Shown: positions 18,248 through 51,263 of the stretch, piece after piece | Layout: each line of letters begins with the position of its first letter | Numbering within the stretch: the stretch's first letter is position 1 | Source: an uncultured Gammaproteobacteria bacterium | GTDB lineage: Bacteria > Patescibacteriota > Microgenomatia > UBA10105 > UBA927 | DNA: 64,000 nt | NCBI GenBank assembly: GCA_964573695.1 | Contig: CAZNKB010000004.1 | Location: 14,214 to 78,213, forward strand | Reading direction: 5' to 3' | Notes under the pieces: generated by a model | Told to the model about the DNA's origin: nothing | The model's database searches: none | What the model saw: only the letters and a program-made list of their open reading frames with translations | Position numbers and translations under genes: made by a program

Positions 18248-20257
18248 GTGAGAAGATACTTTATGGCAGTAGCAACGCGCTTACGAACAGCGCTCCCGAC
18301 AGACAGGTTTGTTTTGGTTTTTTTTGTTTTGTTGTTTTTGGCGCTTTTTTTTGGTGATGGAAAACAAGCCGTTGTTGAGGTTTATGGCGCCGCCGTTGTG
18401 TTGATGATTTGGTTTTTTCGTTTGTCACAGATTAACGCCCCTATTAGTAAGCTCCCCCGCCTGGTCGCCAATTCCTGGATTTTTGTGTTTATTGCGGCGA
18501 CACTATCAACACTAACGTCCGATAGTGTTGGATTTTCAATTTCTTGGGGCGTCCGGCTCCTAAGCGGTTTTCTCGTATATCAGGTGTTTTATGATTTGTC
18601 CTCGGCGCGTATTGAGACGGCCGTTTCCCGCAGTATGATTGCGGTCGCCGCCGCCGCGACCACCACCTCGTTGATTTTTGGTCTTTTTCCATGGTTTCAA
18701 TCGGTGCTCCCCTCCATGAACTTAATCAGCAGAAGTTACGGACACAGTCACCTGGCAGATCTTCTTGTTTTTGTTTTTCCCTTGGTGTGGGGAGCCGTTG
18801 TCTCACAACAGTTTTTTCGCGGTGCGGCAGTAATGCTTTTGTATTCGGGGGCGTTGTTGTTTACGCTGGCTCGAACAGCCTGGATTGTTGTTTTTGGAGG
18901 TGTTTTTGTGAGCGCGTTTTACCTGAGGAAAATTCAAATCAAAGCACTCCTTGTTCTCGCTCTTTGTTTTGGGATAGTTTTGTGCGTGGTGTTTTTTGGA
19001 AAATCATACCTGATAAAGAAAGGAACCCCTCTGCAATCCTACACAAGGCCAGAGTCGGTCGCTTTCCGGGTTGAATACTGGAACCAGGCGCTCAAGGGTT
19101 TTATGGAGCGTCCAATTACAGGAAACGGGCCGGGAACGTTTTCTCTCGTTTCCACCCGGTTTCAAAAACATCCACTCTCCGCCTCGTGGTTTGCGCATAG
19201 TCAGCCGCTTCAGTTGCTGGCGGAACAGGGAGCTGTTGGTTTTTTGGCGTTTGGCGGATTATTACTCTCTCATGTTTTGATTTGGTACAAAGAGAAATCG
19301 AAATTTAAAAAGGGCGCCACAACAGAAGCGCTTATTTTGGGGTGTGCTCTTGTTGTGGGGTATGGCCTTTTTGAATACGTTCTTGATTACTTTGTCATAT
19401 GGATCATGCTCTTTGCTGTGGCGGGGTTGATTACCGGGAGAATTGCAGAAAAAAAGGCGGAGCCCGGCGCAATTGGGGTCAAAATCGCACTTATCGTTAT
19501 CGGTGTGTACTATATTCTTTGGGTGAGCAGTAACGGAGCTGCGTTACTTTCGAAAAAATATGACGCCGCGTTTCTTCTCGCTCCTTTTGATGCCCCCCAA
19601 ACACTGCTTTATCTTGATAAAAACACAGGGAATCTAGGTCACACGACCCGGTCGTTGGCGTTGTTTTTTCACAAGAGAAACCCACAGATTCTTGACGCCC
19701 TGAGTAAGGATGCGCAAAAAACAGGAGATCACGACAAGTCGCTAGCGCTTGCTAAGCTCGCTTTGTACGCCGACCCACAAAACTTAGAATTACTATCGCG
19801 ATATTTTTCCTTGCATTCTTTGTCGGGAAGCGTATATACCGGGGAGGAAATGCTGGAGTTTTTGAAGTACGCGCTCCCCGACCGTTATGGATCCTATGCG
19901 GAGTCATTTTCACCGTATGTTAAAGAGATAAATGACGCAACACACGATATTTTTACAACACCCGAGCCGCTTCGCGAGGGGGTTGTGTCCCTTTTATATT
20001 TAATTGGACTAAAACAGCTGCATGATCGTCCCCATATCACACTTCTGTTTTGGAATCTGGCAAAAGACATAAGCCCGGATTACGCGGCCATGTATATAGA
20101 GTTGGCCATGTACTATCAACACATTGAGCACAACGATAAGAAAGCACAGGAGGTATTGCGTGAATGCGCAACTCGAGAGTCTCCTCGGGACCAGTGCCGC
20201 GCCTTTTTTGACACGGAGCTTCTTCCCCCGGGAGATTACTATGAGGCGATGAGGTAG
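18248..20257 (+). CDS. Wzy_C/O-antigen-ligase-family polytopic membrane protein with a C-terminal TPR-like soluble domain
   Basis: At least ten transmembrane helices. Contains HSQPLQLLAEQGAVGFLAF, a Wzy_C-like loop. The C-terminal ~230 aa are helical-repeat rich. Confidence 0.55.
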   Translation: MRRYFMAVATRLRTALPTDRFVLVFFVLLFLALFFGDGKQAVVEVYGAAVVLMIWFFRLSQINAPISKLPRLVANSWIFVFIAATLSTLTSDSVGFSISWGVRLLSGFLVYQVFYDLSSARIETAVSRSMIAVAAAATTTSLIFGLFPWFQSVLPSMNLISRSYGHSHLADLLVFVFPLVWGAVVSQQFFRGAAVMLLYSGALLFTLARTAWIVVFGGVFVSAFYLRKIQIKALLVLALCFGIVLCVVFFGKSYLIKKGTPLQSYTRPESVAFRVEYWNQALKGFMERPITGNGPGTFSLVSTRFQKHPLSASWFAHSQPLQLLAEQGAVGFLAFGGLLLSHVLIWYKEKSKFKKGATTEALILGCALVVGYGLFEYVLDYFVIWIMLFAVAGLITGRIAEKKAEPGAIGVKIALIVIGVYYILWVSSNGAALLSKKYDAAFLLAPFDAPQTLLYLDKNTGNLGHTTRSLALFFHKRNPQILDALSKDAQKTGDHDKSLALAKLALYADPQNLELLSRYFSLHSLSGSVYTGEEMLEFLKYALPDRYGSYAESFSPYVKEINDATHDIFTTPEPLREGVVSLLYLIGLKQLHDRPHITLLFWNLAKDISPDYAAMYIELAMYYQHIEHNDKKAQEVLRECATRESPRDQCRAFFDTELLPPGDYYEAMR

Positions 20258-20326
20258 CGCTTCTTGTTTTTGGCGCACCGTGTAAAATGGTAACGAATAT
20301 TGCCCGCGTGTGCTACACTTTACCGT

Positions 20327-21148
20327 ATGAAAATCGAACTCAAGTCATCCCGAAAGCCATTTATTACCAAAATAGACATTGTTATCTTGTTGTGCATCAT
20401 TGCTCTCCTGGCATCCGTCGGAGTTGCGGTAAAGCTTGTGCTTCAAAAAGACACATTTGTCACTGTTGAGTTATTGGCATCCGGCGGCGAATGGTGGTGG
20501 GGCGTTCCCCCTCCATATTACTGGAACGCAAAAAGCGTCGTGATCGGAGCGAAGGAGTACGATACATTCAAAAAACCAACCGCCGAAATAGTTGACTTGG
20601 TGAAATACGGTGAGGACGATCGGAAGTTTATGTGGATGAGGGTCCGTTTGCGCGCGAAATATAATTATCTTACAAAAGAGTACATTTTCCGTCAGGAGTC
20701 CCTGCAGATAGGTAAAACGATTCACATTGCCCCCAACAATGTCGCGCTGGTTGGGAACGTTGTTGGGATAGAGGGGGTGGGCACCCTGTGGGACACAGAA
20801 TATTTACAAATCACGGGCAAGGCGATACACATAAAAGATTGGGAGGCGGAAGCGATACAAATCGGAGTAAAAGCGGTCGATAGCAAGGGTGATGTTGTGG
20901 CGGAAATACTTGATAAATATACGGAACAAGAAGATATTACGACAACAACATGGACGGGAGAGCCTCTTCACAAAAAAGATCCGAATTTCAAAAATGTGAC
21001 GGTCACAATGAGAATCCGCGCGGTAAAAGACGGCACCATGCGTTATTTTAACTACAACCAGCCGATTTCAATAGGAAACAAAATACGCATACAATTTCCT
21101 ACGACCGCCGTAGAAGTGAATATTATGAGCGCTAGACCCGCACAATAG
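20327..21148 (+). CDS. Hypothetical protein with an N-terminal transmembrane anchor (extracytoplasmic beta-rich domain)
   Basis: ORF with the internal start MKIELKSSRKPFITKIDIVILLCIIALLASVGVAV. No motif was recognised. Confidence 0.4.
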   Translation: MKIELKSSRKPFITKIDIVILLCIIALLASVGVAVKLVLQKDTFVTVELLASGGEWWWGVPPPYYWNAKSVVIGAKEYDTFKKPTAEIVDLVKYGEDDRKFMWMRVRLRAKYNYLTKEYIFRQESLQIGKTIHIAPNNVALVGNVVGIEGVGTLWDTEYLQITGKAIHIKDWEAEAIQIGVKAVDSKGDVVAEILDKYTEQEDITTTTWTGEPLHKKDPNFKNVTVTMRIRAVKDGTMRYFNYNQPISIGNKIRIQFPTTAVEVNIMSARPAQ

Positions 21149-21932
21149 GCTTCTTTTGCGCAACAAAATAAACACTCCACGATGTCAGGCCGGCTTTCCG
21201 AAGTGGAACACCAAGCTCACCCCATGAAATAATCTGTAGCCCCACCCGAGACGCAAAAGCAGCTATTTCGGGAAAAAAATAATATCGAAGAACGTGATCC
21301 TCGCTCACCCGACGGACAGGTCCGTTCTTAGGCTGAATAGTTAGCGAGTGGTGCACGTGAACGGTGTTAGTCAGGCGAGTAAGCGAGGGGGTTTTTTTCC
21401 TGGTAATAGAAAATTCGGGAGTATTATATGATTGCGTCATATTTTTCGGTTTAGAAGAAAGGACCCCCGGGCCATGCCAGCAGTCGAAAATAAAGACTCC
21501 TCCCGGCCTGAGTTGTTTGGCAGCGGTTTTGAAAAAACGTGTCGCGTCGCGATCCGTTGTCATGTAGCTTAGTACGTCAAAAAGCGACACAACGCTATCA
21601 AACTGACCGGTTTTGTTATACGTGAGGATGTCAGAAACCACATAGGAGATCGCCGCCTTTGCCTTGTCTGCCTTTGTTCTGGCGATGTGTATCATGTTTG
21701 CCGATTTGTCGACGCCAGTTACCTCGTATCCAAGGCGTGCAAAGGCAAGAGCGTATGACCCTGTTCCGCAACCAAGATCAAGAAGTGTCGGGTGTTGGAT
21801 ATCGGGAAGAAGTTTTTGGAGCAATTTTGCCATGAGAAAAGTATTTTTCTTTATGTTACGGGAAGCGTATATTGCGTCATAGTATGGCGCTGTTTTCGTA
21901 AACACATTTTTGTTGGTATTTTGATGTTTCAT
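21132..21932 (-). CDS. Class I SAM-dependent methyltransferase
   Basis: LLDLGCGTGSYALAFARLGYEVTGVDKS, the motif I GxGxG. Confidence 0.7.
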   Translation of the reverse strand: MKHQNTNKNVFTKTAPYYDAIYASRNIKKNTFLMAKLLQKLLPDIQHPTLLDLGCGTGSYALAFARLGYEVTGVDKSANMIHIARTKADKAKAAISYVVSDILTYNKTGQFDSVVSLFDVLSYMTTDRDATRFFKTAAKQLRPGGVFIFDCWHGPGVLSSKPKNMTQSYNTPEFSITRKKTPSLTRLTNTVHVHHSLTIQPKNGPVRRVSEDHVLRYYFFPEIAAFASRVGLQIISWGELGVPLRKAGLTSWSVYFVAQKKPIVRV

Positions 21933-23107
21933 GTTTCAAGCGAGGAGATTGTCCGCACGAGGATTGAAGCGGTTGTGGTCCAGTCAAAGCGGGATTTTAT
22001 ATATTGCCTGGCTGCCAGCCTCATTTTTTGACTGGTAGCCGGCGGCAATCGGAAAGCAGAAGATAGCACATCGCCCGCCTGCGTATGGTTATGGGGATCA
22101 ATATAAAATCCGGTTTTCCCATGAAGTATTTCGCGGTCGTCTCCTCTGCTTCGTATTACCGGGGTGCCGCAGGACTGCGCTTCTAAGACCGAAAGACTTG
22201 CTGTAGATCCCCCTGCGCATTCGGGTGAGCCGGTATAAACAAAAAAATCGAGAGACCGATAGAATTTCGGCAAGTCCTGCTCCTTGATGTTCCCAATAAA
22301 CTTTACAAGTTTATCTATTCCGGCGCGCTTCATAAAACGCAGGTATTTTATTTTTACGTCTCGATCAGGGATGCTTTCTGATATTTTTGCTCGCACCGGT
22401 AAGCCCCGGGAATGGAGATCGGCTACGATGCCGAGAAAATCTTCGGTGCCCTTAAATATCGTGTAGTCCGTGCTGTGTCCCAAGAGAAACCTGCGGGTTT
22501 TTAAGCGATGAGACGGCGCGTACGAAAAAGCCGCACAGTCGACGCCGTTAGGAAGATACACGTCAGGCTTTCTTCCGTAGGTATCCATAATATATTGTTC
22601 GACGGACGGGCCAAGAGACGTAAGAATAGCAGAAGCGTTATATGCCCATTTGTCTAAGTGGGCATAGAAAAATTTTGCTACTGCGACACAAAATCGGGAA
22701 AACGGCGTTAAAGAAGATATTCTAATTGGGTCGTAAAAAATAGCGAGCGGCTCAAAACAATGACAAATCGCTTTGGAAGAAATAATGACAGACAAAAAAT
22801 TCATCGGGAAATTTGTTGCAAACAAAACATCACCCTGTTTTACCGTTTTTTTAAGTTGAAAGAAATTTACCATGAGCGTAAGCGGGAGAAGCAGCCAGAA
22901 TAATTTTGGCGGCGTCCATAAGAGCCTCACCTGCACACGCACGTCGTTGTAGCGCCTGCGCCAATACGGACTAATACGGTGAAGGTATAATGTAACATCA
23001 TGAGACTCTCTAACCCGCTTGAGCAGTTCAAAAAGGTATTTCTCCCCTCCTCTGGAATATATGCTTTCCGTGTGTAACACATGAAGGCGTCGCTTTGTCG
23101 AAATCAT
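21929..23107 (-). CDS. Glycosyltransferase family 4 (GT-B, retaining)
   Basis: C-terminal segment FVYTGSPECAGGSTASLSVLEAQSCGTPVI (the E-x7-E / GT1-GT4 motif). The start was moved to the internal Met MISTKRR at 23107 so that it abuts the upstream permease stop. Confidence 0.65.
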   Translation of the reverse strand: MISTKRRLHVLHTESIYSRGGEKYLFELLKRVRESHDVTLYLHRISPYWRRRYNDVRVQVRLLWTPPKLFWLLLPLTLMVNFFQLKKTVKQGDVLFATNFPMNFLSVIISSKAICHCFEPLAIFYDPIRISSLTPFSRFCVAVAKFFYAHLDKWAYNASAILTSLGPSVEQYIMDTYGRKPDVYLPNGVDCAAFSYAPSHRLKTRRFLLGHSTDYTIFKGTEDFLGIVADLHSRGLPVRAKISESIPDRDVKIKYLRFMKRAGIDKLVKFIGNIKEQDLPKFYRSLDFFVYTGSPECAGGSTASLSVLEAQSCGTPVIRSRGDDREILHGKTGFYIDPHNHTQAGDVLSSAFRLPPATSQKMRLAARQYIKSRFDWTTTASILVRTISSLET

Positions 23108-23886
23108 ATTTTTGTAAAAGTCCCGAAACGTTTCGCGACGCGAAACGCCAGGGAAACGGATATCGCTCCGGCGATTGTGTATCCTGCAATAAGCCACACC
23201 GCTTTATCGAGAGACAGATATTGCGCGGGGTATGATCGTATGGATTCGAATACATACGATGAGGGTACAGCATATGATATGTGCTGTAGCACCGGCGGCA
23301 GCGCCGTGCGTTCATAGAACACCAGCGAAAAAATTTGTAGAACAGTGCTCAATAACCAACCTATAAATCCTACCCGTTCTCCGAACAAGCAAATTGCCGC
23401 AATAGCATATAACGATAGCGAGATGCCAACCAATTCAAGCAGGATAATCCAGAGGAATACCTGCGGACCGAACGTGAGCACAAACGACGGATAAATAAGT
23501 ACTAGGATGAGGCCAAGCACCGTTAGAGAGATTATTATTTTTGTCAGCGAAGCGGCGGTAATTCCAGTAATGAGCTCCGTAAGACTTATCGGGGTTATGA
23601 GAAGGCTTTGAATATTTTTTGAAGCGAAGTCATCAATAAATTGGGCGGTCGTTTCCTGAATAATGCGGGCGGTGCAATTCCAGTAAACGATTCCAGTAAG
23701 AATGTTTAGGGTGATGGTCGCCCCCACTTGCGATTGATCAAGCTGCGAGGAGGCAAGAATGGCAAACAAGACGACTTCTATTCCCGGCCAGATCAGTATT
23801 TCAATGATTCGGGCGGGATTTCTCCTCATTGAATAGAGATAGTGCAGGTATAGCCCCAATAGTCTTTTGGGTGAAAAGTTAAACAT
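23104..23886 (-). CDS. ABC-2 type polysaccharide/teichoic-acid exporter permease (Wzm/TagG-like)
   Basis: Six transmembrane helices and ABC-2 topology. Located directly downstream of an ABC ATPase. Start taken at MFNFSP (23886). The longer start at 23913 is also possible. Confidence 0.65.
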   Translation of the reverse strand: MFNFSPKRLLGLYLHYLYSMRRNPARIIEILIWPGIEVVLFAILASSQLDQSQVGATITLNILTGIVYWNCTARIIQETTAQFIDDFASKNIQSLLITPISLTELITGITAASLTKIIISLTVLGLILVLIYPSFVLTFGPQVFLWIILLELVGISLSLYAIAAICLFGERVGFIGWLLSTVLQIFSLVFYERTALPPVLQHISYAVPSSYVFESIRSYPAQYLSLDKAVWLIAGYTIAGAISVSLAFRVAKRFGTFTKI

Positions 23887-24559
23887 AATATTGTCTCGCC
23901 TGAGAAGACACAAGCGGTTTTCCGTCGTAAACCAGTGAACCTTTCGACAGTATGATCATGCGCGTGCAAAACGACCGTATCTCATCGGGGTTTTGCGATA
24001 CGAGCATGGTTATTTTTGAGTGGGTATTTCTGTTTTTGAGATAGTCGTGTGTTTTGTGGGTAAGTATGGGATCCATGTGGGCGGTTATTTCATCGAGCAA
24101 CAATATTTTAGGATTGTTTATGAGGGATTTTGCCAGATTTACAAAAGAATTTTCTCCGGATGAAAGCCGGTAGACTTTTTTGTGAAAGAGCGATTCTTGC
24201 ATGCTGAAATGTTTCCAAAGTGAGATCAGGTACTTCCTTGTGTCCGCTCTATTGTATAGCAACCCATAAGTGGTGAGGTTTTCCATAACGGTAGCGTACC
24301 CGCTTAGCCGCTGGCTGGAAGATGCATAGTTGAGGAGTTGCAGAACTTGTTGGCGGTGCTGAGTCAGTGATAGGCCCGTGATCGAAACGAAGCCCTTGTC
24401 AGGATCCATGAGGCCACTCATGATGTGAAGCAGCGTTGATTTCCCTGCGCCGACTGATCCGGCTATTCCAACAATCTCGCCCGGACGCACGGAAAGTGAT
24501 ACATTTGATAAAATGAGTTTTCTGCCCAGTGTTTTTGCTACAGATGTAAGTTCAATCAT
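23879..24559 (-). CDS. ABC transporter ATP-binding protein (Wzt/TagH-like, short form without a C-terminal carbohydrate-binding domain)
   Basis: Walker A motif GIAGSVGAGKSTLLHIMSG. ABC signature LSSGENSFVNLAKSL. Walker B motif ILLLDEITAHMD. Confidence 0.8.
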   Translation of the reverse strand: MIELTSVAKTLGRKLILSNVSLSVRPGEIVGIAGSVGAGKSTLLHIMSGLMDPDKGFVSITGLSLTQHRQQVLQLLNYASSSQRLSGYATVMENLTTYGLLYNRADTRKYLISLWKHFSMQESLFHKKVYRLSSGENSFVNLAKSLINNPKILLLDEITAHMDPILTHKTHDYLKNRNTHSKITMLVSQNPDEIRSFCTRMIILSKGSLVYDGKPLVSSQARQYYV

Positions 24560-27924: not shown

Positions 27925-27945
27925 GGGACATCCGATACTATACTT

Positions 27946-28287: not shown

Positions 28288-28289
28288 CG

Positions 28290-29978: not shown

Positions 29979-30301
29979 TGGTATAGGGATAATAGAGATG
30001 AAGAGAAGCAGTGCTTCTAATAATCGCTAGCATCTATTGTTGAGAATCTACGCACGGGATAAGTGATAAACGTTGTAAAATGTCAAATAGCTGAAAGGCC
30101 ATATCTTTGTGTTCCTTCGTGGACGGGTGATAATCATAGGGATGAAACGTTTCGGTGATTTCTATGGGAGCGTAACACGTATTTTCCGATGATTGTATAA
30201 ATTTGGTAATGAGATCTAGGAATCGACCAGGAATAGTCGTGTCTGTCGTTACGAGCATGGTGCCGGCGTACACTTTTCGCATATCAGATAGCGCGGAAGT
30301 C

Positions 30302-37186: not shown

Positions 37187-37190
37187 GATG

Positions 37191-42849: not shown

Positions 42850-43833
42850 TTACCACCGGTCGTGTACGTACGGCTTTATGCGGCGGGTATATATAGCCCG
42901 GACGCCGTCCATTGTTGTCTTATCCAGTTTTGGCATGTCGCTGGCCCTGCTGTTTTCCATGATCTGGTTTGGCGATTTCCCACCCGCGATAACCGTTGAC
43001 ACGGCGTCTTGCATAAGGATCCAACGAAGGGCGAATTGTGCCATGGTAAATTCTTTGGGTGTGATTGCTCGTAAATCCCTCACCGCTTTGAGCCCGGCGC
43101 CAAAATCTACCCCAGCAAATGTTTCTCCAATATCAAAATACTGACCGCGCCTATTGAACGAGCGGTGGTCATTTTTGGGAAATCGGGAGATTATATGAAA
43201 TTTGCCCGTGAGAAGTCCGCTTGCTAACGGTACGCGAACAATCACGCCTACATTTCGACGTTTTGCTTCCCGAAAAAACAATTCCATTGGCCGTTGGCGG
43301 AACATGTTACAAATTATTTGTACCGATGAAACATTGGGGTACTCGATAGCCTTAAGTCCTTCCTCGACTTTTTCTACACTGACTCCGTAATATTTTATCC
43401 TGCCTTTTTTCACGAGTTCGTCAAGGAAGAAGAATATTTCTGGGCGATAAAATACTTGTGTGGGAGGCGTATGAAGCTGCACTAAATCCAAGCAGTCGGT
43501 TCGAAGATTTTTTCGGCACCGATCTACAAATGCGGCAATATTACTTTTTGTATACCCTTCTGCCACGTGCGGGGAGAGACGACGGCCGATTTTTGTCGCG
43601 ACGATTACTCGACGTCGGCACGATGCGGCATACTCTCCAATAAGACGCTCACTTCTCCCGTCGCCGTAGATATCCGCAGTGTCGATAAAATTGATCCCCG
43701 CACTATCCAGGCTTGCCAATGCCGTTCTCGCCTGTTCTTCAGTCACTGTTCCCCAATCAGATCCCAGCGACCAGCTACCGTAGCCGATTTCCGATACTTT
43801 GAATTTGGTTTTCCCTAAAAATCTGTATTTCAT
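42850..43833 (-). CDS. Aldo/keto reductase family oxidoreductase
   Basis: MKYRFLGKTKFKVSEIGYGSWSLG...GINFIDTADIYGDGRSERLIG, the canonical AKR N-terminus. 327 aa. Confidence 0.8.
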   Translation of the reverse strand: MKYRFLGKTKFKVSEIGYGSWSLGSDWGTVTEEQARTALASLDSAGINFIDTADIYGDGRSERLIGEYAASCRRRVIVATKIGRRLSPHVAEGYTKSNIAAFVDRCRKNLRTDCLDLVQLHTPPTQVFYRPEIFFFLDELVKKGRIKYYGVSVEKVEEGLKAIEYPNVSSVQIICNMFRQRPMELFFREAKRRNVGVIVRVPLASGLLTGKFHIISRFPKNDHRSFNRRGQYFDIGETFAGVDFGAGLKAVRDLRAITPKEFTMAQFALRWILMQDAVSTVIAGGKSPNQIMENSRASDMPKLDKTTMDGVRAIYTRRIKPYVHDRW

Positions 43834-43858: not shown

Positions 43859-45229
43859 TTACGATCGATTATATATTTGGGCAGAAAAATTTAATACCGA
43901 ATATTTATACGGATGCAAAAAACGGTGTATTTTATGGACAAGCCGTCGCGGATACCTTGCGTTGACACGGATTATTTCTTGAGCATATGTATCCATCTCG
44001 AGCCGAAATTGTTTGCCTGCCATTCCGTCGCGCCGGTCGAGTAGATAGGCAGCTGTCTTTTGGCGTTTGGATAATATAGTATCAGATTCTTTTGTCTTCA
44101 CAAGATGACGTATGCGGGCGAAAAGCTGTTTGAAATCCGTAACCGTATACGAAAGTTTTTGTACCTCAGACAATTTCGGGAAGCGTTCTCCCCATAATCC
44201 CTGCGTTTGATCAGGATACAAATAGATAACCGGCTTGCCGAGAGAAAGAAATTCTCCCGATATACTTGATAAGTCGGTAACCATGATATCCGCTGCAATA
44301 AGAGAGTGATTTGGTCCCCAAAAAGAAGAGATGCTTGAATCGTCGAAACACACATTATCGAAATGATTCAGTACGCGAAGAATTTTTGGCTTTGCACCAT
44401 ACTGAAGAATAGATATGTGGTGAGGGCGGATGATGACATTTAGGTGCAATTTGCGTGCAATCGTACAAAATTCATAAAGATGTTTTTCATCTTCCTCCTC
44501 TCGCCCGATAGACCAAATCTTGAGTGATTCCCACGTCGGCGAATAGAGGAGAGTTTTTTTGCGCGGATCTAGGTTAAAGCGTTTGAGAATTTTATTCTTG
44601 TCGAGTTGCCCGGTATACAGCGTATCATCAAGCACTCTTCCAATTCGGCGCATCCGAGGATCATTGGGATCAAGTTCTCCGAATGTGACAAGTTCATCGT
44701 GTACGATTTTTCCAGAAAGCAGCAGGCGTCCGTACGTATGAAGCGACCGGATGTGATCGTCGCGTATATACGGCAATGGGCCGATTTGGAATAGCTCACC
44801 ATGAAAAACCTGTACAATATGGCCTCTCATTGGTTTTTCGATAATTGGCAACACCATGTCCAAAAGCCACATAACGGGGGTGACATAAAGAGAGGCAAGG
44901 AATCTGACGTGCAACGCAAATTTTCGCATCCACTCCTCGTGTGCAATGTGTTTATCGGGGGGAAGCGAGCAGTATGACGGCGAACATAAGTCTAGCGGGT
45001 GTGTTGCATACGGCATGTCAAAAAGAATTTTGTTTGATATGAATCGGGGTGCTTTTGTGAAGCTTTTGGTATTTGAATACACCATGACAGGAAGAATATA
45101 CGGTGAAGAGATTAAATTTTTGTAGTAAGCATCCATATTTCTCCCCGACCCCGCCGAGGAATCTATTGCCATAATGAAACAGGGTATTGTTGTGACAAGC
45201 GGTTTTATTGTTTTAGATGAATGATGCAT
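43859..45229 (-). CDS. CDP-glycerol/CDP-polyol:poly(polyol-phosphate) phosphotransferase (TagB/TagF/Glyphos_transf family)
   Basis: C-terminal half LHLNVIIRPHHISI...FDDSSISSFWGPNHSLIAADIMVTDLSSISGEFLSLGKPVIYLYPD resembles the TagF catalytic core (conserved His, then the SEF...KPV region). Confidence 0.55.
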   Translation of the reverse strand: MHHSSKTIKPLVTTIPCFIMAIDSSAGSGRNMDAYYKNLISSPYILPVMVYSNTKSFTKAPRFISNKILFDMPYATHPLDLCSPSYCSLPPDKHIAHEEWMRKFALHVRFLASLYVTPVMWLLDMVLPIIEKPMRGHIVQVFHGELFQIGPLPYIRDDHIRSLHTYGRLLLSGKIVHDELVTFGELDPNDPRMRRIGRVLDDTLYTGQLDKNKILKRFNLDPRKKTLLYSPTWESLKIWSIGREEEDEKHLYEFCTIARKLHLNVIIRPHHISILQYGAKPKILRVLNHFDNVCFDDSSISSFWGPNHSLIAADIMVTDLSSISGEFLSLGKPVIYLYPDQTQGLWGERFPKLSEVQKLSYTVTDFKQLFARIRHLVKTKESDTILSKRQKTAAYLLDRRDGMAGKQFRLEMDTYAQEIIRVNARYPRRLVHKIHRFLHPYKYSVLNFSAQIYNRS

Positions 45230-45341
45230 GGTGAAAGTTTGGGGTAGGCATCCGTTCGTTAGACAGAGCGATCGATTTATTCCGTCGATTGGTAATTTGT
45301 GGCTTTATCCGAAAAGATTTTTCAATTATATTCATGTATGT

Positions 45342-45354
45342 TTGACACTGTCAA
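45342..45354. promoter_or_regulatory. Perfect 13-nt palindrome TTGACACTGTCAA in the divergent intergenic region between the TagF-like operon and the kinase gene
   Basis: TTGACA-C-TGTCAA as seen directly in the sequence. It could be a -35 element embedded in an operator. Confidence 0.3.
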
Positions 45355-45420
45355 TTTAACCCTTTTTTATTTGGCGCGAGCTGTGGAGAGTTTCTCGCGG
45401 TAGAATATGGTTTATTTTGT

Positions 45421-46041
45421 ATGAAAATAGCATTTATCGGCATGTCGGGAAGCGGAAAGACATTCTGGTCAAAACAGTTGTCGGCGAGAGGATTTATATC
45501 CTGGTGCTGCGACGAGCTAATAGGACAAAAACTTGCGAACGAGCAGCATATATTTGGTTCCACGGGCACGAAAACCGTAGCAGAATGGATGGGTCAACCC
45601 TATGAAATACAGTATCAGGAGCGTAGTGCGCTGTATTTGGAGAAAGAGGCGTTGATGATGCAGGAAATTCTGACTTCTGTAGAACGCTCCCGAGCGGATG
45701 AGAACATAGTTATTGATACGACCGGTAGTCTGATTTACATCAACGAAAATATTATCCGGTCATTGAAACGTCAAGTAACTTTTGTATACTTGTGTCCTCC
45801 GGCATCGTATATAGATCGTATGATACAGCTGTATTTTGACGACCCGAAGCCGATAATTTGGGGTGATGCATACCATAGAAAATCCGGAGAAACACGCCTT
45901 CAGTCAATACGCCGATGTTACCCTGCGCTTCTTCAGTACAGAAGCACGCGGTACCAAATACTCGCGGACAAAACAGTGAACACAAGTGTGTTTACAAGGC
46001 CTGATTTTACGGTAGATACATTACTGCCGCTTCTTGTCTGA
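45421..46041 (+). CDS. P-loop small-molecule kinase (shikimate/gluconate-kinase-like, AAA_33-type)
   Basis: MKIAFIGMSGSGKTFWSKQL, a Walker A motif at the extreme N-terminus. 206 aa. This is the only plus-strand gene in a minus-strand biosynthetic operon. Confidence 0.5.
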   Translation: MKIAFIGMSGSGKTFWSKQLSARGFISWCCDELIGQKLANEQHIFGSTGTKTVAEWMGQPYEIQYQERSALYLEKEALMMQEILTSVERSRADENIVIDTTGSLIYINENIIRSLKRQVTFVYLCPPASYIDRMIQLYFDDPKPIIWGDAYHRKSGETRLQSIRRCYPALLQYRSTRYQILADKTVNTSVFTRPDFTVDTLLPLLV

Positions 46042-46062
46042 GAGTGAATTTTACGCGTTGTG

Positions 46063-46821
46063 CTATTTGCGGGATATAATTTTGTGGATGTGGGCATTGG
46101 CAAACGTTAAATCTTCTTTCGTGTCGACGTCACACCAGAAGTCCGTTTTTAGATTGTCTTGGTAATAAACATTGCCACCTTTTTGGGCAATGTGCTGGAA
46201 TGCGTATTCAGGATATTCCTGGGTCAGATTATTATTGATGATAATCTCAAGCGAAGTGCAGACTTCCTCAGACGCATCTTTTGGGACGTAGTCGATTCCC
46301 TGCGCTACACCGTACGATGCTTCCCAGGGAATTTGTTTCCCGTACTCGATAACGGTGCCCGTTTTTTGATTCACCCGTATGGAGAATTCTTCCGCACTCT
46401 CCCTCTTTTTCGGTTCGACGGCTGAGGTAATTCCTTTTGCATTGCGGGTTAAGCGTTCCGGAATTTCTTTGTTGTATAGGAGATCACCTGCCAGCCGCAA
46501 AAAATTGGTATTCCGTATGTGTTTTCGTGCCAAAAAGAACGAATATATACTATTTTTTTCTTCATACGCGTTGTTGTATATAAATGTACTATGCAGATTT
46601 GGAAAAAATTCCCGTACAAAGTGTCTGATCATGGATGCTTTATGTCCGACAACGAATATGATGTCTGAGACGCCGATTGCGCAAAGATTGGAAATCGAAT
46701 ACCAAAGAAGCGGTTTGCCGCCCACCGGAAGTAGACACTTTGGCATTGTATAAGTTACTGGCTGAAGCCTCCCGCCATCTCCTGCGACCAGGATTAGAGC
46801 TTTGATATTTTTTTTCTTCAT
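46063..46821 (-). CDS. Sugar-phosphate / phospho-alcohol nucleotidyltransferase (LicC/GlmU-N-like NTP_transferase fold)
   Basis: KALILVAGDGGRLQPVTYTMPKCLLPVGGKPLLWYSISNL, the G-x-G-x-R-(L) pyrophosphorylase motif. Start taken at MKKKNIKAL (46821), which gives a 4-nt overlap with the upstream methyltransferase. Confidence 0.7.
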   Translation of the reverse strand: MKKKNIKALILVAGDGGRLQPVTYTMPKCLLPVGGKPLLWYSISNLCAIGVSDIIFVVGHKASMIRHFVREFFPNLHSTFIYNNAYEEKNSIYSFFLARKHIRNTNFLRLAGDLLYNKEIPERLTRNAKGITSAVEPKKRESAEEFSIRVNQKTGTVIEYGKQIPWEASYGVAQGIDYVPKDASEEVCTSLEIIINNNLTQEYPEYAFQHIAQKGGNVYYQDNLKTDFWCDVDTKEDLTFANAHIHKIISRK

Positions 46822-47705
46822 ATGATTCCTTCGGGCCATCGGCGCAGTACAGAAAAATTGATAAACTGTTTTAGGGTATTTATGTCTGCGACGCCGGTTG
46901 TGGGCTTGGTGCATACGAGTATGGTCCGCCAGCTGTTTTTCATCCAGTGGGCATTGGAGTATTCTCCAAAGAGATTTTCGATGCGGAAACCTACGCGTTC
47001 CAGCATGTCTTTGTATTGACCAAGAGTATATTGGTACATGTAGTAGTTAAACGATCCTTTCCGGTTATTTTTGCTCCATTTTCTGTGATAGGAATCGAGC
47101 TGCGATGTTTCGAAATAAATGTTGGTATCAATGAGCTTATATCCGTCGACGGCGCCATGTTTCGTAAACTGATAGACGCCTTTTCTGAGTTTTTTTCCGT
47201 GAGACCGTATATACGCAACATGTGCATGGGCATTGATGATGTCTATCATGAATTTTCCTCCTGGTTTGAGTGCTCGGAAAACACGGCGTAATACGTCTAC
47301 ATTTTCATCATGGGGGAAATATCCGAATGCCGAATACATAGAGATGATGACGTCATATCGGTTGCGCATATGCATGTGTCTCATATCCTGTTTGACAAAT
47401 TTGACCGGTATACGGGCGTTTTGTGCGTCACGACGCGCAATGCCGAGAAAATAGTCCGAATAGTCGAGTCCCGTGACGCGGAATCCACATTTGGCTAGTT
47501 CGATGGTGTGCCTGCCGTGTCCGCAGCCTAAATCAAGAATATTCATGTGGCGAGAAATCCCCAACGCCCGGATGATAAACTGCGCTTCCGCTTTGGCTCG
47601 CTGACCAGATATAATCGGATTATAGAGATTGAAATACGTGGCCCCGAATTCTTTTTTCCACCAGTATTTAGGGGCATGGGATAAGCGATCGTAGGATGGG
47701 ATCAT
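46818..47705 (-). CDS. Class I SAM-dependent methyltransferase
   Basis: ILDLGCGHGRHTIELAKCGFRVTGLDYSD (motif I). There are 4-nt overlaps on both sides. Confidence 0.75.
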   Translation of the reverse strand: MIPSYDRLSHAPKYWWKKEFGATYFNLYNPIISGQRAKAEAQFIIRALGISRHMNILDLGCGHGRHTIELAKCGFRVTGLDYSDYFLGIARRDAQNARIPVKFVKQDMRHMHMRNRYDVIISMYSAFGYFPHDENVDVLRRVFRALKPGGKFMIDIINAHAHVAYIRSHGKKLRKGVYQFTKHGAVDGYKLIDTNIYFETSQLDSYHRKWSKNNRKGSFNYYMYQYTLGQYKDMLERVGFRIENLFGEYSNAHWMKNSWRTILVCTKPTTGVADINTLKQFINFSVLRRWPEGII

Positions 47706-49015
47706 AAACTATATACCTCCGGAATTTGCATGATCCAGTTCTGCGCAATAGCATACGTGAGCGCACCCTGATTTGGAATAAGTATTTTATCGCCAATTTG
47801 TATGTCTTGGGCAAAACAAGAATATCCCCAAAGATCTCGTGTGGTGCAAAGTTTGCCGTACAGAGTCATGGGGATGCTGGTGTGTGATGGTCTGGTTAAG
47901 TTTATGACCGGAAAATACTCGTACATATACCTTTGCCATCCGACCATATTAATCCCGCCATCAACGATGCACACGCCGTTGTCTTTTATGTCTACTACCG
48001 TTAGCACGATGTGCATCGCGTTGTTGCATATGATGCGTCCTGGTTCGGCAAAGTATTGTGCTAGTACTAACGGAGCAAGATACGTTCGTATGGCGTTCCC
48101 GATATTTTGGGCATACGCAGTAAGCGGTATGGCATCCCTGACTTTGAAATTGCTCGAAAATCTTCGTTTGACGTCATCGTATGAACTGTCGGAGTGTTCC
48201 GATGCATCGCGCGAAAATTCGTACGGATAGTACCCCTCGGTCTCAAACGCCTCAAATCCGCCTCCGATGTCTATGTATTTGATTTCTTTCCGTTCCGATT
48301 TGGTAAAATGCGTCGAAAGATACGCGGCAAGTTCCTTAATACTGTTTTGGTATGGGGTGGCGTTTTTGTTTCGGGAAGCGTGAAAATGTATGCCTTCGAT
48401 TCTAATCCATGGATATTTTTTTGCTGTTCTCCAGAATGTCGCAAGGTTAGCAATACCGATACCGAATTTTGCCCACTGGGGCATGGCGCTTAAATGGAGA
48501 CGCACGCCAATTCGGACGAGTTTGTTACGTTTTTTGGTAATGCGACCGATTCGCTCGAGTTCCTGAAAACTATCGACGTGTATCCGCACCTTTTTGTTGT
48601 TATTTACGGCCAACTCGATTTCTTCGTCGGTTTTGCCGGGGCTGTAATAAACAATGTCCGTACAACCTAAATGAAGTGATTGAGACAACTCCCAGCCACT
48701 TGCCACATCCAGACCGTAACCCGCCTTGATTGTTTCTCGGATTAGTTTGGGGTACGGATTGATTTTGAACGCGTAATACGGGGAAAAATTCGGTATTGAT
48801 GAGCTCATTGTCGTCTGAAACTCCCTGATGTCGTGAATAAGCGACCGTCTGTCATATAGGTAAAACGGCGTGTTGTGTTTTTTGGTCACTGCCAGCATGG
48901 AAGTTCGTTTTTTCAGTTGGTCAATAACGATATGTACTAACCCGTTCGTATCTGAATGACGCTGCAGGCCAGACGGAGTATGTTTCGCTTTCAGAGTGTG
49001 GGGCGCCTGTCTCAT
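47702..49015 (-). CDS. Fold-type-III PLP-dependent decarboxylase (Orn/DAP/Arg decarboxylase family 2). This is the second copy in the island.
   Basis: TPFYLYDRRSLIHDIREFQ...YAFKINPYPKLIRETIKAGYGLDVASGWELSQSL (YAxKxN PLP-lysine box and DVxSxxEL). Confidence 0.65.
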   Translation of the reverse strand: MRQAPHTLKAKHTPSGLQRHSDTNGLVHIVIDQLKKRTSMLAVTKKHNTPFYLYDRRSLIHDIREFQTTMSSSIPNFSPYYAFKINPYPKLIRETIKAGYGLDVASGWELSQSLHLGCTDIVYYSPGKTDEEIELAVNNNKKVRIHVDSFQELERIGRITKKRNKLVRIGVRLHLSAMPQWAKFGIGIANLATFWRTAKKYPWIRIEGIHFHASRNKNATPYQNSIKELAAYLSTHFTKSERKEIKYIDIGGGFEAFETEGYYPYEFSRDASEHSDSSYDDVKRRFSSNFKVRDAIPLTAYAQNIGNAIRTYLAPLVLAQYFAEPGRIICNNAMHIVLTVVDIKDNGVCIVDGGINMVGWQRYMYEYFPVINLTRPSHTSIPMTLYGKLCTTRDLWGYSCFAQDIQIGDKILIPNQGALTYAIAQNWIMQIPEVYSL

Positions 49016-49767
49016 AATGGGTCGGTGAATTCCTGATTTTTGGCCTGCATAGATTTATAGAATTCATCTACCAGGCGTTTTGAACCGTTGTGTGATACAC
49101 GGCCATGGTCTAACACGATGATCCGGTCGCAATTGTTTTTGACGTAAGAAAGCCAGTGCGTGACGATTAAGATCGTTGTCCCTAGCTTGTAGAATTTTTC
49201 TATGGTTTTGAGCGCCTTGTCTTGAAATTTTTGATCGCCGACATACATGCTTTCATCCAGGATAAGAATATCGGGTTTTGTATGTATCGTTATGGAAAAT
49301 CCCAATTTGAGTTTCATGCCGTCGGAATAAGTAAACACCGGCGCGTCAATAAACCGTCCGATGTCAGCATATTCGGTAATCGCATTTAATTTTGAATCAA
49401 TTTCGCTTTTGCTCATGTTTAGCAGCATGCCGTTAAGATAAATATTTTGAATGCCGCTTAGCTCAGGAAGAAACCCGGCTTCAAGGTTGATAAGAGACAC
49501 CACGCGGCCGTGTGTGGTGACGGATCCTAACGTGGGCGTTGTGATTCCGGAGATGATTTTAAGCAGCGTCGTTTTTCCTGAACCATTGGGTCCGATGATG
49601 CCAACCCGCTCCCCCTTTTTTATCGTCAGGTTGATATCCCGAAGGGCCCAGAATACTTCGTTTTTACCTTTGATGATCGTTTCGACCAGCGTGGGTTTTT
49701 CATGGTGAATTTCGTATTTTTTGCCGATATTATTAAGCGCAATGGCGGTTGACGTGTTTTTTTTCAT
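49012..49767 (-). CDS. ABC transporter ATP-binding protein (TagH/Wzt-like, short)
   Basis: GIIGPNGSGKTTLLKIISG. ABC signature YSDGMKLKLGFS. Walker B motif ILILDES. Confidence 0.8.
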   Translation of the reverse strand: MKKNTSTAIALNNIGKKYEIHHEKPTLVETIIKGKNEVFWALRDINLTIKKGERVGIIGPNGSGKTTLLKIISGITTPTLGSVTTHGRVVSLINLEAGFLPELSGIQNIYLNGMLLNMSKSEIDSKLNAITEYADIGRFIDAPVFTYSDGMKLKLGFSITIHTKPDILILDESMYVGDQKFQDKALKTIEKFYKLGTTILIVTHWLSYVKNNCDRIIVLDHGRVSHNGSKRLVDEFYKSMQAKNQEFTDPL

Positions 49768-50543
49768 ACCCAGTCATCAAAGTTTTTACTTTCTTTCTGA
49801 AACGTGACAATACCGAGCGCCGTAATGATACCAATTGCCGCTATATTGCTTATGAGCATGCCGGGTCCTGGCAAGGCCGCTCCGATAAGCGCATGCTGCA
49901 TGAGTTGAACGATTGAAGTAAGCGGGTTAAGGCGCCACAACCAAAGCAGCTCTCTGGGTATTTGCGAGAGTGAGTAGATAATCGGCGTGGCATAAAACCA
50001 CACGATGAGAATTGCCTGCACAAAAAAGTTGACGTCACGGTATCTCACATTGAGGGCGGTTGTAAGCAAACTGATGCCAATGGTAAAACATGCAAGCATG
50101 GTAAATGCCGCCAGGAAGTAGACGGGAGACAGCAAGGTAAACTCGCCAAGAAATGATACCGGGATAAGAAATAGGAGTAGCGCCACAAAATAGTTTATGA
50201 GATTGGATAAAATGATAGAAACCGGAATGACCGCGCGCGGAAACGCGGCTTTTTTGATAAGTGTACGTTCATTGAGTATCGACGGGGTCGTTTTTGTAAA
50301 TGAAAGGGAAAAAAAATTCCATGTGATAAGGCCGGTAAAGAGATGAAAATAATAATTTTCGACCGGATCTTTGATAAATAATGTGAAAATAAATCCGATA
50401 ACGATCATCTGGATCATCGGATTGATGACAAGCCACAAAAAACCAAACACGGTGTTTTTGTACCGGGCGCGCAGTTCTTTTTCGGTCATTCCCCATAACA
50501 GTTCAAAAAAATGACCAGGGGCTCTGTGTTTCATGCACCACAT
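49764..50543 (-). CDS. ABC-2 type exporter permease (TagG/Wzm-like)
   Basis: Six transmembrane helices. N-terminus MTEKELRARYKNTVFGFLWLVINPMIQM, the ABC-2 conserved N-terminal motif. There is a 4-nt overlap with the ATPase. Confidence 0.7.
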   Translation of the reverse strand: MWCMKHRAPGHFFELLWGMTEKELRARYKNTVFGFLWLVINPMIQMIVIGFIFTLFIKDPVENYYFHLFTGLITWNFFSLSFTKTTPSILNERTLIKKAAFPRAVIPVSIILSNLINYFVALLLFLIPVSFLGEFTLLSPVYFLAAFTMLACFTIGISLLTTALNVRYRDVNFFVQAILIVWFYATPIIYSLSQIPRELLWLWRLNPLTSIVQLMQHALIGAALPGPGMLISNIAAIGIITALGIVTFQKESKNFDDWV

Positions 50544-50669
50544 TATACGATATACGCTTGTCTGCTTCTATGAGATCGACAAGGGGTATGCTGAGAAGAG
50601 CGAAGACGAAATACTTGTGCGGCGGGACGTTTCTCGCATATTATATCTGGTATCCGCCCGCAACTTGTT

Positions 50670-51263
50670 ATGGGAATTATCTATTTGGTACTCACCGGCT
50701 GTTTGTATATCGTTTCCCTTCCTATCCAGGTTATTATCGCTGTCGCAATTTTTTGTAGTTCCGGTTGGCCGGTATTATTTGTGCAGCAGCGGATAGGCAA
50801 AGGTGGTAAGCGATTTATGATGTATAAGTTCCGGACCATGACCAACGGGGCTCATCTCGAGCAAAAAAAGTACTTGAAGATAAATGAGTCGAAAGGCCCG
50901 GTATTTAAGATCCGCAATGACCCGCGGTTTACCAACATCGGAAGGTTTTTGAGTCATACAGGGCTTGACGAACTGCCGCAGCTTTATAATGTCATTCGGG
51001 GCGATATGGCGTTTATCGGCCCCCGCCCGTTGCCCGTTTCCGAGGTGAAAGCACTGGAGCCTTGGATGCGCGTACGGCATACGATTCTGCCCGGCATAAT
51101 ATCCCCCGCCATTCTCACCGGAAAATATCACAAAAATTTTGACTGGTGGATGAAAAGTGATGTCGAATACGCCCAGCAAAAATCGGTACAAGGTGATATT
51201 CGCCTGGTCTTTCACTTTTTGACGTTTATCCTGAGATTGCTATGGAAAGAGTTGTTCCTGTGA
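50670..51263 (+). CDS. Initiating polyprenyl-phosphate phosphoglycosyl transferase (bacterial sugar transferase, PglC/WbaP C-terminal-domain type)
   Basis: WPVLFVQQRIGKGGKRFMMYKFRTMTNGA...GLDELPQLYNVIRGDMAFIGPRP, the hallmark KFRTM and DELPQ motifs. Confidence 0.8.
   Translation: MGIIYLVLTGCLYIVSLPIQVIIAVAIFCSSGWPVLFVQQRIGKGGKRFMMYKFRTMTNGAHLEQKKYLKINESKGPVFKIRNDPRFTNIGRFLSHTGLDELPQLYNVIRGDMAFIGPRPLPVSEVKALEPWMRVRHTILPGIISPAILTGKYHKNFDWWMKSDVEYAQQKSVQGDIRLVFHFLTFILRLLWKELFL

Follow-up and report, generated by a model that had tools for sequence, protein, structure and literature searches.

The window analysed here is a stretch of 64,000 nt from an uncultured bacterium (contig CAZNKB010000004.1 of assembly GCA_964573695.1). 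We found that the surface-polymer island at positions 18248-51263 of this window contains a conserved seven-gene cassette (43859-50543), coding for a permease, an ATPase, a pyridoxal-phosphate (PLP) decarboxylase, a methyltransferase, a cytidylyltransferase, a TagF-like transferase and a P-loop kinase. We read the region as a glycopolymer locus of the teichoic-acid/capsule-like kind, situated beside the replication origin (oriC) of a Patescibacteria (candidate phyla radiation, CPR) bacterium. We infer that the cassette adds a zwitterionic, choline-like head group and exports the product. The general scheme, in which a phospho-amino-alcohol is made, activated with cytidine diphosphate (CDP), transferred to a glycan and exported, seems to us somewhat better than an even bet. 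Its homoserine/aminopropanol version is more tentative and falls short of even chances. With more reserve still, we put forward as possible the full proposal that a homoserine kinase and a fold-type-III O-phosphohomoserine decarboxylase lead to an N-methylated, CDP-activated aminopropanol tag on a wall glycopolymer, and that the same decarboxylase clade serves a phylum-wide module like MccD, MccE and MccF.

A conserved cassette and a separable variable module

Families were assigned using Pfam scans of the open reading frames (ORFs) of the window, NCBIfam models with their own cut-offs, and sequence searches of the PDB. The cassette genes and the neighbouring phosphoglycosyl transferase gene are as follows.

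43859-45229, minus strand: TagF-like CDP-alcohol phosphotransferase (PF04464, 6e-10, 39 bits, weak)
45421-46041, plus strand: P-loop kinase (under the Pfam cut-off)
46063-46821, minus strand: LicC/PntC-like nucleotidyltransferase (NTP_transferase, 1e-16)
46818-47705, minus strand: class I S-adenosylmethionine (SAM) methyltransferase (Methyltransf_25, 4e-23)
47702-49015, minus strand: fold-type-III PLP decarboxylase #2 (Pfam, 3e-28)
49012-49767, minus strand: ABC transporter ATPase of the short TagH/Wzt type, 251 aa (PF00005, 1.6e-22)
49764-50543, minus strand: ABC-2 permease, the gene that opens the cassette operon (PF01061, 1.7e-18)
50670-51263, plus strand: small Bac_transf phosphoglycosyl transferase, divergent from the cassette operon (PF02397, 3e-47)

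All four minus-strand junctions (46818/46821, 47702/47705, 49012/49015 and 49764/49767) read ATGA. Thus, the five genes of the operon, from the permease through the ATPase, decarboxylase #2 and methyltransferase to the nucleotidyltransferase, are translationally coupled. The nucleotidyltransferase starts at Met32 (46821) and not at the longest-ORF start (46914), which gives a protein of 252 aa, the same as its homologues. An earlier note, made from the letters of this DNA, had listed the island ORFs, their families and the 4-nt overlaps, and the ORF coordinates, the Pfam scans and the ATGA junctions bear it out on all three. The island ORFs are genuine genes and not chance ORFs, because they have strong family matches and are syntenic in related genomes.

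Eighty (80) genome loci around homologues of the island's serine hydroxymethyltransferase (SHMT)-like enzyme were scored with the island proteins, and loci around homologues of decarboxylase #2 were added. Five distinct loci were informative.

L009 and L093: group-II decarboxylase, aldo/keto reductase, TagF-like transferase, P-loop kinase, nucleotidyltransferase, methyltransferase, fold-type-III decarboxylase #2, ATPase and ABC-2 permease, in the order of the window
L094 (minimal): phosphoglycosyl transferase, ABC-2 permease, ATPase, fold-type-III decarboxylase #2, methyltransferase, nucleotidyltransferase, TagF-like transferase and P-loop kinase
L007: aldo/keto reductase, TagF-like transferase, nucleotidyltransferase, methyltransferase, ATPase, ABC-2 permease and phosphoglycosyl transferase are kept, without the P-loop gene and decarboxylase #2; it has instead a Methyltransf_24 protein, fold-type-III decarboxylase #1, a HisC/CobD-family enzyme (hisC 204 bits, CobD 123 bits) and an SHMT-like gene
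L005: SHMT-like enzyme, aldo/keto reductase, group-II decarboxylase, Methyltransf_24 protein and ABC pair, without nucleotidyltransferase, methyltransferase, TagF-like transferase or kinase

The cassette recurs in four of these loci (L009, L093, L094 and partly L007), and the ABC-2 permease is syntenic in all four. The phosphoglycosyl transferase gene stands at an equivalent position in L005, L007, L093 and L094. Furthermore, wherever one of the kinase and decarboxylase #2 occurs in the five loci, so does the other; the kinase is conserved in L009, L093 and L094, and every cassette that bears it retains the decarboxylase and the methyltransferase. Around the cassette of L094, there is no SHMT-like, group-II, aldo/keto reductase or fold-type-III #1 gene within 10 kb, and L005 has its PLP genes without the cassette. 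Thus, the two sets are separable modules, and the following five genes belong to the lineage-variable one.

38125-38949, plus strand: Methyltransf_24 protein (PF13578, 2.7e-16; longest ORF from 38032; called as 274 aa in another locus, L001)
38958-40193, plus strand: fold-type-III PLP decarboxylase #1 (Orn_Arg_deC_N, 1e-35)
40276-41517, plus strand: SHMT-superfamily enzyme (PF00464, only 68 bits)
41487-42833, minus strand: group-II PLP decarboxylase (Pyridoxal_deC, PF00282, 5e-20)
42850-43833, minus strand: aldo/keto reductase (PF00248, 5e-62)

The earlier note had drawn four PLP enzymes of the island into one pathway. This holds for decarboxylase #2, which lies in the conserved cassette, but not for the other three, which belong to the separable module; likewise, the survey of related genomes that it had called for found the cassette kept and the rest of the PLP genes variable. 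The four enzymes do represent three families. However, they represent only two folds (I and III) rather than three, because the SHMT-like and group-II enzymes are both of fold-type I, and a fifth PLP enzyme, the DegT aminotransferase at 32971-34089, had been missed.

Cassette enzymes and the proposed head group

The P-loop protein gave no significant match in the PDB. A metagenome scan with an alignment of four cassette kinases yielded 53 loci (34-45% identity), and a Pfam scan of 109 ORFs neighbouring these homologues found threonine synthase 14 times, homoserine dehydrogenase 12 times, Asd 5 times, aspartate kinase 4 times and threonyl-tRNA synthetase 3 times. Homoserine dehydrogenase (hom) and/or threonine synthase (thrC) adjoins the kinase gene in 16 of the 37 metagenome loci of at least 3 kb, typically in the order hom, P-loop gene, thrC (for example, with the P-loop gene at L095:627-1268, L098:1071-1832 and L105:7825-8433). 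Model NF040667 was matched by 44/44 members of the kinase family (best 1.6e-13), all far below its cut-off of 197 bits, and the window kinase scored 22.7 bits; matches below the cut-off indicate a related family and not an equivalog. Shikimate kinase models were matched by only 12/44. In addition, a neighbour-joining tree places the cassette kinases among copies from thr operons. Thus, from the neighbours at the thrB position, the NF040667 matches and the tree, the window protein can be assigned at family level to the shikimate-kinase-like homoserine kinases. This agrees with the earlier note, which had seen a P-loop rather than an APH-fold kinase. It had also taken a serine- or threonine-like amino acid as the starting point; from the kinase family, L-homoserine is the most likely one and would be the substrate of the window kinase.

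DvMF_0971, a shikimate-kinase-like homoserine kinase of Desulfovibrio, complements an Escherichia coli thrB mutant (PMC5764234). The window protein resembles it in the shared NF040667 match and in having relatives at the thrB position; it differs in its score and in that the cassette copies lie in a glycan locus without hom or thrC. As an observation in its own right, this P-loop family, for which there is no Pfam model, sits at the thrB position between hom and thrC in L095, L098, L105 and 13 more metagenome loci. It probably fills the gap of the 'missing homoserine kinase' (thrB) in many uncultured genomes and metagenomic thr operons, which, like the MccD/E/F-like module described below, bears on how the metabolism of such genomes is reconstructed.

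Decarboxylase #2 scored 141 bits on the lysA model TIGR01048 (cut-off 297.9) and is therefore not lysA. Both fold-type-III enzymes of the island exceeded the PF02784 cut-off of 23.4 (123.6 bits for #1 and 99.2 bits for #2), and their solved relatives are diaminopimelate (DAP) decarboxylases, FslC, 6knh (which we take to be SbnH) and BtrK. The PLP lysine and the HFH, GGG and EPGR motifs of #2 are invariant in 14 relatives, and the motifs are visible in #1 too. Relatives of #2 with 40-48% identity are widespread in Patescibacteria. In 5/5 non-island Patescibacteria contigs, the genes are ordered as S66 peptidase (MccF family), fold-type-III decarboxylase, class I methyltransferase (about 275 aa) and two DCD (dCTP deaminase-like) proteins, at the following positions.

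L088:6992-11100
L089:6982-11128
L090:6989-11218
L148:4984-9230
L149:4980-9213

The methyltransferase of L089 matches MccD (PDB 5fcd) over its full length at 1.5e-27, with the next match at 8e-4, and by synteny those of L088, L090, L148 and L149 are likely MccD-like as well. The flanks of the five strings showed no MccB/ThiF-like gene. This string looks like a phylum-wide aminopropylation module, and it would make an MccD/E/F-like set common in the phylum. In microcin C, MccD moves a 3-amino-3-carboxypropyl (acp) group from SAM onto a phosphate and the N-domain of MccE decarboxylates it to aminopropyl (PMC10491745). The MccD product, O-(3-amino-3-carboxypropyl) phosphate, is chemically an O-phosphohomoserine ester. 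Thus, two independent lines, the kinase that accompanies the decarboxylase in the cassette and the transferase that accompanies it in other genomes, point to the same type of substrate, and by this analogy we propose decarboxylase #2 as a phosphohomoserine (or CDP-homoserine) decarboxylase.

In addition, a class II aminoacyl-tRNA synthetase gene (tRNA-synt_2) follows the string in 3/5 contigs, and a carbamoyltransferase gene lies near it in L090 and L148. A tblastn search for MccD on plasmids recovered only an orphan MccE-like gene, for a 588-aa fold-type-III decarboxylase with a GNAT domain (L092:4929-6695, Salmonella Weltevreden plasmid NZ_CP100719.1). This gene is annotated only as a GNAT acetyltransferase and adjoins ORFs of insertion sequence (IS) or transposase type; no other mcc gene was present in the 11-kb stretch.

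The best PDB relative of the cassette methyltransferase is by far 9ri2 (9.5e-26), which is NmbA, a bacillithiol N-methyltransferase (PMC12719100). Most of the relatives with a named function that come after it are also N-methyltransferases, including plant phosphoethanolamine methyltransferases (PMTs) at about 1e-9. The candidate role of an MccD-type acp-transferase was rejected, with NmbA the best relative and only 16-18% identity to the methyltransferases of L088-L090; MccD was absent from the top 60 PDB matches. From these relatives, we propose the enzyme as an N-methyltransferase of the aminopropyl head group.

For the nucleotidyltransferase, the top PDB sequence match is LicC (4e-15, N-terminal half only), with the polyol-phosphate cytidylyltransferase IPCT among the top matches; the best NCBIfam match (rmlA_long, 79 bits) is far under its cut-off, and only 9 relatives were present in the protein collection. 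A Foldseek search of its AlphaFold2 model (pLDDT 88.7) returned PntC (TM 0.80-0.83), LicC (0.77) and IPCT, with RmlA close behind (E 3e-17 vs 3e-16). The fold appears to be of this type, and from the model we propose a CTP:phospho-aminopropanol cytidylyltransferase. The TagF-like protein scored 39 bits on PF04464 (cut-off 22.1) over a partial region, and its only PDB match was the TagF-like capsule polymerase Cps3D (3e-4). The motifs YxPxWE, RPHP and TDLSS, presumably the catalytic motifs of the TagF family, are invariant in 5 cassette copies.

On these family roles, the small phosphoglycosyl transferase would start a lipid-linked glycan that transferases of the GT2, GT4 and GT26 families extend. 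The P-loop kinase would convert L-homoserine to O-phosphohomoserine, and decarboxylase #2 would remove the alpha-carboxylate to give 3-aminopropanol phosphate; by analogy to MccE, it may instead act after cytidylylation, on CDP-homoserine. The NmbA-like methyltransferase would then methylate the amine one to three times, the PntC/LicC-like enzyme would form the CDP-activated donor, the TagF-like enzyme would place phospho-aminopropanol on a hydroxyl of the glycan, either as a cap or as a side group, and the ABC-2 pump would export the lipid-linked polymer. The order of phosphorylation, decarboxylation, N-methylation, CDP activation and transfer with export had been sketched by the earlier note and survives, as the cassette is conserved and the nearest characterised relatives appear to fit the steps. 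Its poly(polyol-phosphate) chain built by the TagF-like enzyme fares less well: 3-aminopropanol has no second hydroxyl, so the enzyme would cap or decorate and not polymerise.

The scheme shares its logic with several known systems. The Lic pathway (LicA kinase, LicC and LicD), which places phosphocholine on teichoic acids and lipooligosaccharide, likewise uses a kinase, CTP activation and transfer of a phospho-head-group to a surface glycan. However, it salvages external choline, its kinase has the APH fold, LicD is not of the TagF family, and it has no decarboxylase or methyltransferase; the cassette would build a three-carbon head group de novo, starting from an amino acid. PntC (Tde1415-type, CTP:2-aminoethylphosphonate), the best structural match, also activates a small aminoalkyl phosph(on)ate for surface decoration, but its phosphonate substrate comes from the PEP mutase pathway, and Pfam scans found no PepM or Ppd gene in the window. 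In microcin C, a fold-type-III PLP decarboxylase makes aminopropyl phosphate from O-(3-amino-3-carboxypropyl) phosphate, as proposed here; the differences are that the acp-phosphate would derive from a homoserine kinase and not from SAM, that the methyltransferase is NmbA-like, and that the target would be a glycan rather than a peptidyl nucleotide.

CobD (together with the PduX kinase) and Cj1436 of Campylobacter jejuni belong to routes in which a hydroxy-amino acid first receives a phosphate and a PLP decarboxylase then turns it into a phospho-amino-alcohol. The cassette would follow the same scheme, and in L007 a HisC/CobD-family gene replaces those of the kinase and decarboxylase #2. These decarboxylases differ in being of fold-type I, in working with a GHMP kinase and on threonine or serine phosphate, and in that their products enter a cobamide or an amide-linked capsule side group and not a CDP-activated donor. 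The wall teichoic acid machinery (TagA, TagF/TarL and TagGH) shares with the island a GT26 TagA-like enzyme, the TagF family, an ABC-2 exporter and a lipid-linked start. However, the initiator here is Bac_transf and not TagO, the activator is LicC/PntC-like and not TagD/TarI, and a polyol-phosphate chain is not to be expected from a predicted donor that lacks a second hydroxyl. All the enzyme classes, and the logic as a whole, have precedents (Lic, PntC, CobD/Cj1436, MccD/E and TagF); their combination here, like the head group that it predicts, is not known from a described system.

Patescibacteria are mostly uncultured, many live attached to host cells, and their surface chemistry is hardly known. 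The predicted surface molecule, phospho-(N-methyl)aminopropanol, is one carbon longer than phosphoethanolamine or phosphocholine. If the proposal is true, an O-phosphohomoserine decarboxylase would join the fold-type-III PLP family, the TagF family would gain a new type of donor, and homoserine would have a new use at the cell surface.

Evidence against the proposal and competing explanations

Several points weigh against the homoserine route. L007 keeps the methyltransferase, the nucleotidyltransferase and the TagF-like enzyme without the kinase or decarboxylase #2. Because the HisC/CobD family acts on phosphorylated substrates and replaces both genes there, the nucleotidyltransferase may accept phospho-amino-alcohols generally, and the head group may vary by lineage. 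Decarboxylase #2 is no closer to the MccE-like protein (22% identity, 69 bits) than to DAP decarboxylases; its link to acp or phosphohomoserine comes from gene context and not from sequence closeness, and the cassette methyltransferase, as noted, is not MccD-like. In the structural comparison, RmlA-type sugar-1-phosphate enzymes trail PntC and LicC only narrowly, and the TagF-like assignment is weak by both its Pfam score and its PDB match. The kinase gene lies on the strand opposite to the cassette operon. Amino-acid biosynthesis is generally lacking in Patescibacteria, which leaves the source of homoserine unexplained, and no hom or asd gene is present in the window. A natural 3-aminopropanol-phosphate substituent of glycans was not found in the literature searched, where queries on a phosphohomoserine decarboxylase or aminopropyl-phosphate substituents returned nothing relevant. 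Beyond family assignment and synteny, the chemistry of the cassette, with its substrates and the polymer structure, is prediction.

Four other explanations were considered. The one that survives best, unlikely as it is, is a serine/ethanolamine route: the group-II enzyme would be a plant-type serine decarboxylase fed with serine by the SHMT-like enzyme, the P-loop protein would phosphorylate ethanolamine, and PMT-like N-methylation, formation of CDP-ethanolamine or CDP-choline by the LicC-like enzyme and TagF-like transfer would follow. A plant serine decarboxylase (4e-21) is indeed among the PDB relatives of the group-II enzyme, the methyltransferase matches plant PMTs, LicC is the best sequence match of the nucleotidyltransferase, and L005, L009, L031 and L093 each contain both an SHMT-like and a group-II gene. 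However, L094 has the full cassette with neither gene within 10 kb, and L005 has both genes without the nucleotidyltransferase, TagF-like enzyme, methyltransferase and kinase. Furthermore, model matches and operon context make the kinase family one of homoserine kinases, and this route gives no role to decarboxylase #2, the sole PLP gene inside the operon.

Less probable again is a plain CDP-polyol teichoic acid, modelled on the pneumococcal CDP-2-glycerol route with its reductase, kinase and LicC-type transferase. Here the aldo/keto reductase, kinase, nucleotidyltransferase and TagF-like enzyme would make and polymerise a polyol phosphate, and the PLP enzymes and methyltransferases would be unrelated. 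CDP-glycerol or CDP-ribitol is the usual donor of the TagF family, IPCT is among the top sequence and structural matches of the nucleotidyltransferase, and the reductase and TagF-like genes are neighbours in the window as well as in L007, L009 and L093. The reductase gene is missing, however, from the minimal cassette of L094; moreover, the kinase family again speaks for homoserine, and the decarboxylase and methyltransferase genes are ATGA-coupled to the nucleotidyltransferase gene and kept in every kinase-bearing cassette.

We regard as improbable a SAM-derived aminopropylation, in which decarboxylase #2 and the adjacent methyltransferase-fold protein form an MccE/MccD-type pair acting on a phosphate or amine of a precursor, either by acp transfer followed by decarboxylation or by SAM decarboxylation followed by aminopropyl transfer. 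Both orders have been discussed for microcin C (PMC10491745). In 5/5 other genomes, a class I methyltransferase accompanies this decarboxylase family (MccD-like shown for L089); this would fit such a pair, as would the 4-nt overlap of the two genes in the window. However, the cassette methyltransferase belongs to a different subfamily, with a true N-methyltransferase as its best relative and MccD outside the top 60, and the conserved homoserine kinase would be left unexplained. Finally, mere co-location near the origin of housekeeping enzymes of threonine, lysine/polyamine and one-carbon metabolism (kinase, decarboxylases and SHMT-like enzyme) is hardly credible: although the SHMT-like, decarboxylase #2 and P-loop families are each widespread (35-48% identity) in non-glycan contexts, the operon is ATGA-coupled, the kinase and decarboxylase #2 are gained or lost together across the five loci, no hom, thrC or DAP-pathway gene lies near the kinase or decarboxylases in the island, and both decarboxylases are far under the lysA cut-off.

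Variable module, remaining island genes and genomic setting

Judged by score, none of the SHMT-like, fold-type-III and group-II enzymes of the island appears to be an ordinary housekeeping enzyme. The earlier note had named an ordinary glyA and decarboxylases firmly of lysine/polyamine biosynthesis as findings that would speak against its reading; by score, neither was found. The SHMT-like protein scored 164 bits on the SHMT model NF000586 (cut-off 335) and 243 bits on the fluorothreonine transaldolase model TIGR04506 (cut-off 650), and its PDB matches are ObiH (1e-44), the SHMT of Methanocaldococcus jannaschii (6e-39) and bacterial SHMTs (about 1e-17). By these matches, it seems nearer to threonine transaldolases and archaeal SHMT than to glyA, and it falls in neither curated family. 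The gene was tried and rejected as a pathway anchor: its neighbours are heterogeneous, with no conserved partner (Aminotran_1_2 in 8/75, a thiamine-diphosphate enzyme in 6/75, alanine racemase in 5/75, and housekeeping genes). The family occurs mostly in non-glycan contexts across Patescibacteria, and the enzyme may simply be the Ser/Gly/Thr enzyme of the lineage. A literature search on threonine transaldolase in polysaccharide clusters returned nothing relevant.

A homologue with 50% identity is found in a cultured bacterium, Paenibacillus sp. FSL H8-0122 (L003:6280-21245). There, the string runs through an ABC transporter, GT2, the SHMT-like gene, a class I/II aminotransferase, a HAD phosphatase, a GT2-TPR protein and GTP cyclohydrolase II to two GluRS-like proteins, one of them fused to GlutR_N and shikimate-dehydrogenase domains, and a CBASS-like SAVED/cyclase pair lies just upstream.

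Decarboxylase #1 scored 168 bits on lysA, also under the cut-off of 297.9; it matches FslC (6e-30) and then DAP decarboxylases in the PDB, and shares 22% identity with #2. Its gene follows the Methyltransf_24 gene in the window and in L007. The Methyltransf_24 protein (38125-38949) was considered as a second acp-transferase, and no PDB relative was found for it. The Methyltransf_24, fold-type-III #1 and SHMT-like genes are co-directional in the window, and in L007 they are closely strung together with the HisC-like gene. The group-II decarboxylase scored 72 bits on PF00282 (cut-off 27), 148 on MfnA (cut-off 299) and 141 on histidine decarboxylase (HDC; cut-off 305); HDC (1e-24) is another of its PDB matches, and the gene recurs with the SHMT-like gene, a Methyltransf_24 gene and an ABC pair in L005, L009, L031 and L093. 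For the aldo/keto reductase, every NCBIfam match was far under its cut-off. A second substituent, an amine or amino-alcohol, is the probable product of the variable module. As a speculation, the SHMT/transaldolase-like enzyme could form a beta-hydroxy amino acid, such as serine or 4-hydroxythreonine (phosphate), and a decarboxylase of the module could turn it into an amino-alcohol.

L009 (7157-9873) and L093 (18913-21320) also carry a second group-II decarboxylase gene beside a gene for a glutamine-synthetase-like ligase, a pair that the window does not have. The best model for the ligase, gamma-glutamylputrescine synthetase (328 bits, under its cut-off), hints at a gamma-glutamyl-amine conjugate.

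The remaining island genes, as assigned by Pfam, are as follows.

18248-20257 and 24513-25934: Wzy_C proteins
21929-23197 and 35113-36264: GT4 glycosyltransferases
23104-24559: first ABC-2/ATPase pair (the second being that of the cassette, 49012-50543)
25907-26917, 26893-27924 and 36236-37186: GT2 glycosyltransferases
28290-29978: NodU/CmcH-type carbamoyltransferase (NodU model 152 bits, under the cut-off)
31094-32881: GT26 WecG/TagA domain (2e-61) fused to a C-terminal GDSL/SGNH domain (8e-16) in a single ORF
18248-32881 (left half), further: DUF4330 protein and a methyltransferase
32971-34089: DegT aminotransferase, a PLP enzyme (1.9e-111)
32971-37892: amino-sugar and backbone genes, comprising DegT, a GFO/IDH/MocA oxidoreductase, GT4, GT2 and a second Methyltransf_24 protein

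The carbamoyltransferase suggests O-carbamoylation of the glycan. The genes of 32971-37892, whose order is identical in L001, L005 and L007, match the NCBIfam models for a LegC-family aminotransferase (302 bits) and a UDP-GlcNAc 3-dehydrogenase-like protein (106 bits), both under the cut-offs. In L005, the GT26 domain is fused instead to PQQ beta-propeller repeats in a protein of 1146 aa.

On the left, dnaA (16772-18139) and dnaN directly border the island, both within positions 15485-18247, and the GC skew changes sign at about 16-18 kb, at the left edge of the island. Thus, the glycan locus starts beside oriC. The placement near the origin is comparable in L090 and L094, with rnpA, dnaA and dnaN nearby. 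GC content is slightly lower inside the island (0.44-0.48 vs 0.47-0.50), and an Rfam scan of the window gave 0 hits. Three ORFs of exactly 727 aa in the window are mutually unrelated. Patescibacteria dominate the SHMT-like and decarboxylase families, and the closest named genome among the 80 loci is a Candidatus Gottesmanbacteria metagenome-assembled genome. Decarboxylase #2 has an identical copy on an NCBI contig and more copies in Logan assemblies of SRR14932511.

Glycan genes extend beyond 51263, with Wzy_C at 60857 and Polysacc_synt (Wzx-type) at 62151. Four large ORFs at 51457-57313, after the phosphoglycosyl transferase gene, have no or sub-threshold Pfam matches (DUF7305); large unannotated ORFs, some with DUF7305, also follow the transferase in L007 and L093, and those of the window may code for surface or pilus-like proteins with a link to the locus. 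Other genes of the window encode PrgI, VirB4/TraG-like, M23 peptidase, MurD and YidC proteins. Upstream of dnaN (8405-14483), the PrgI-family protein, the VirB4/TraG-type P-loop ATPase and the M23 peptidase-domain protein make up a type-IV-secretion-like set, and L090 too has TraC-like and VirB4/TraG-type ATPase genes upstream of its dnaA region.

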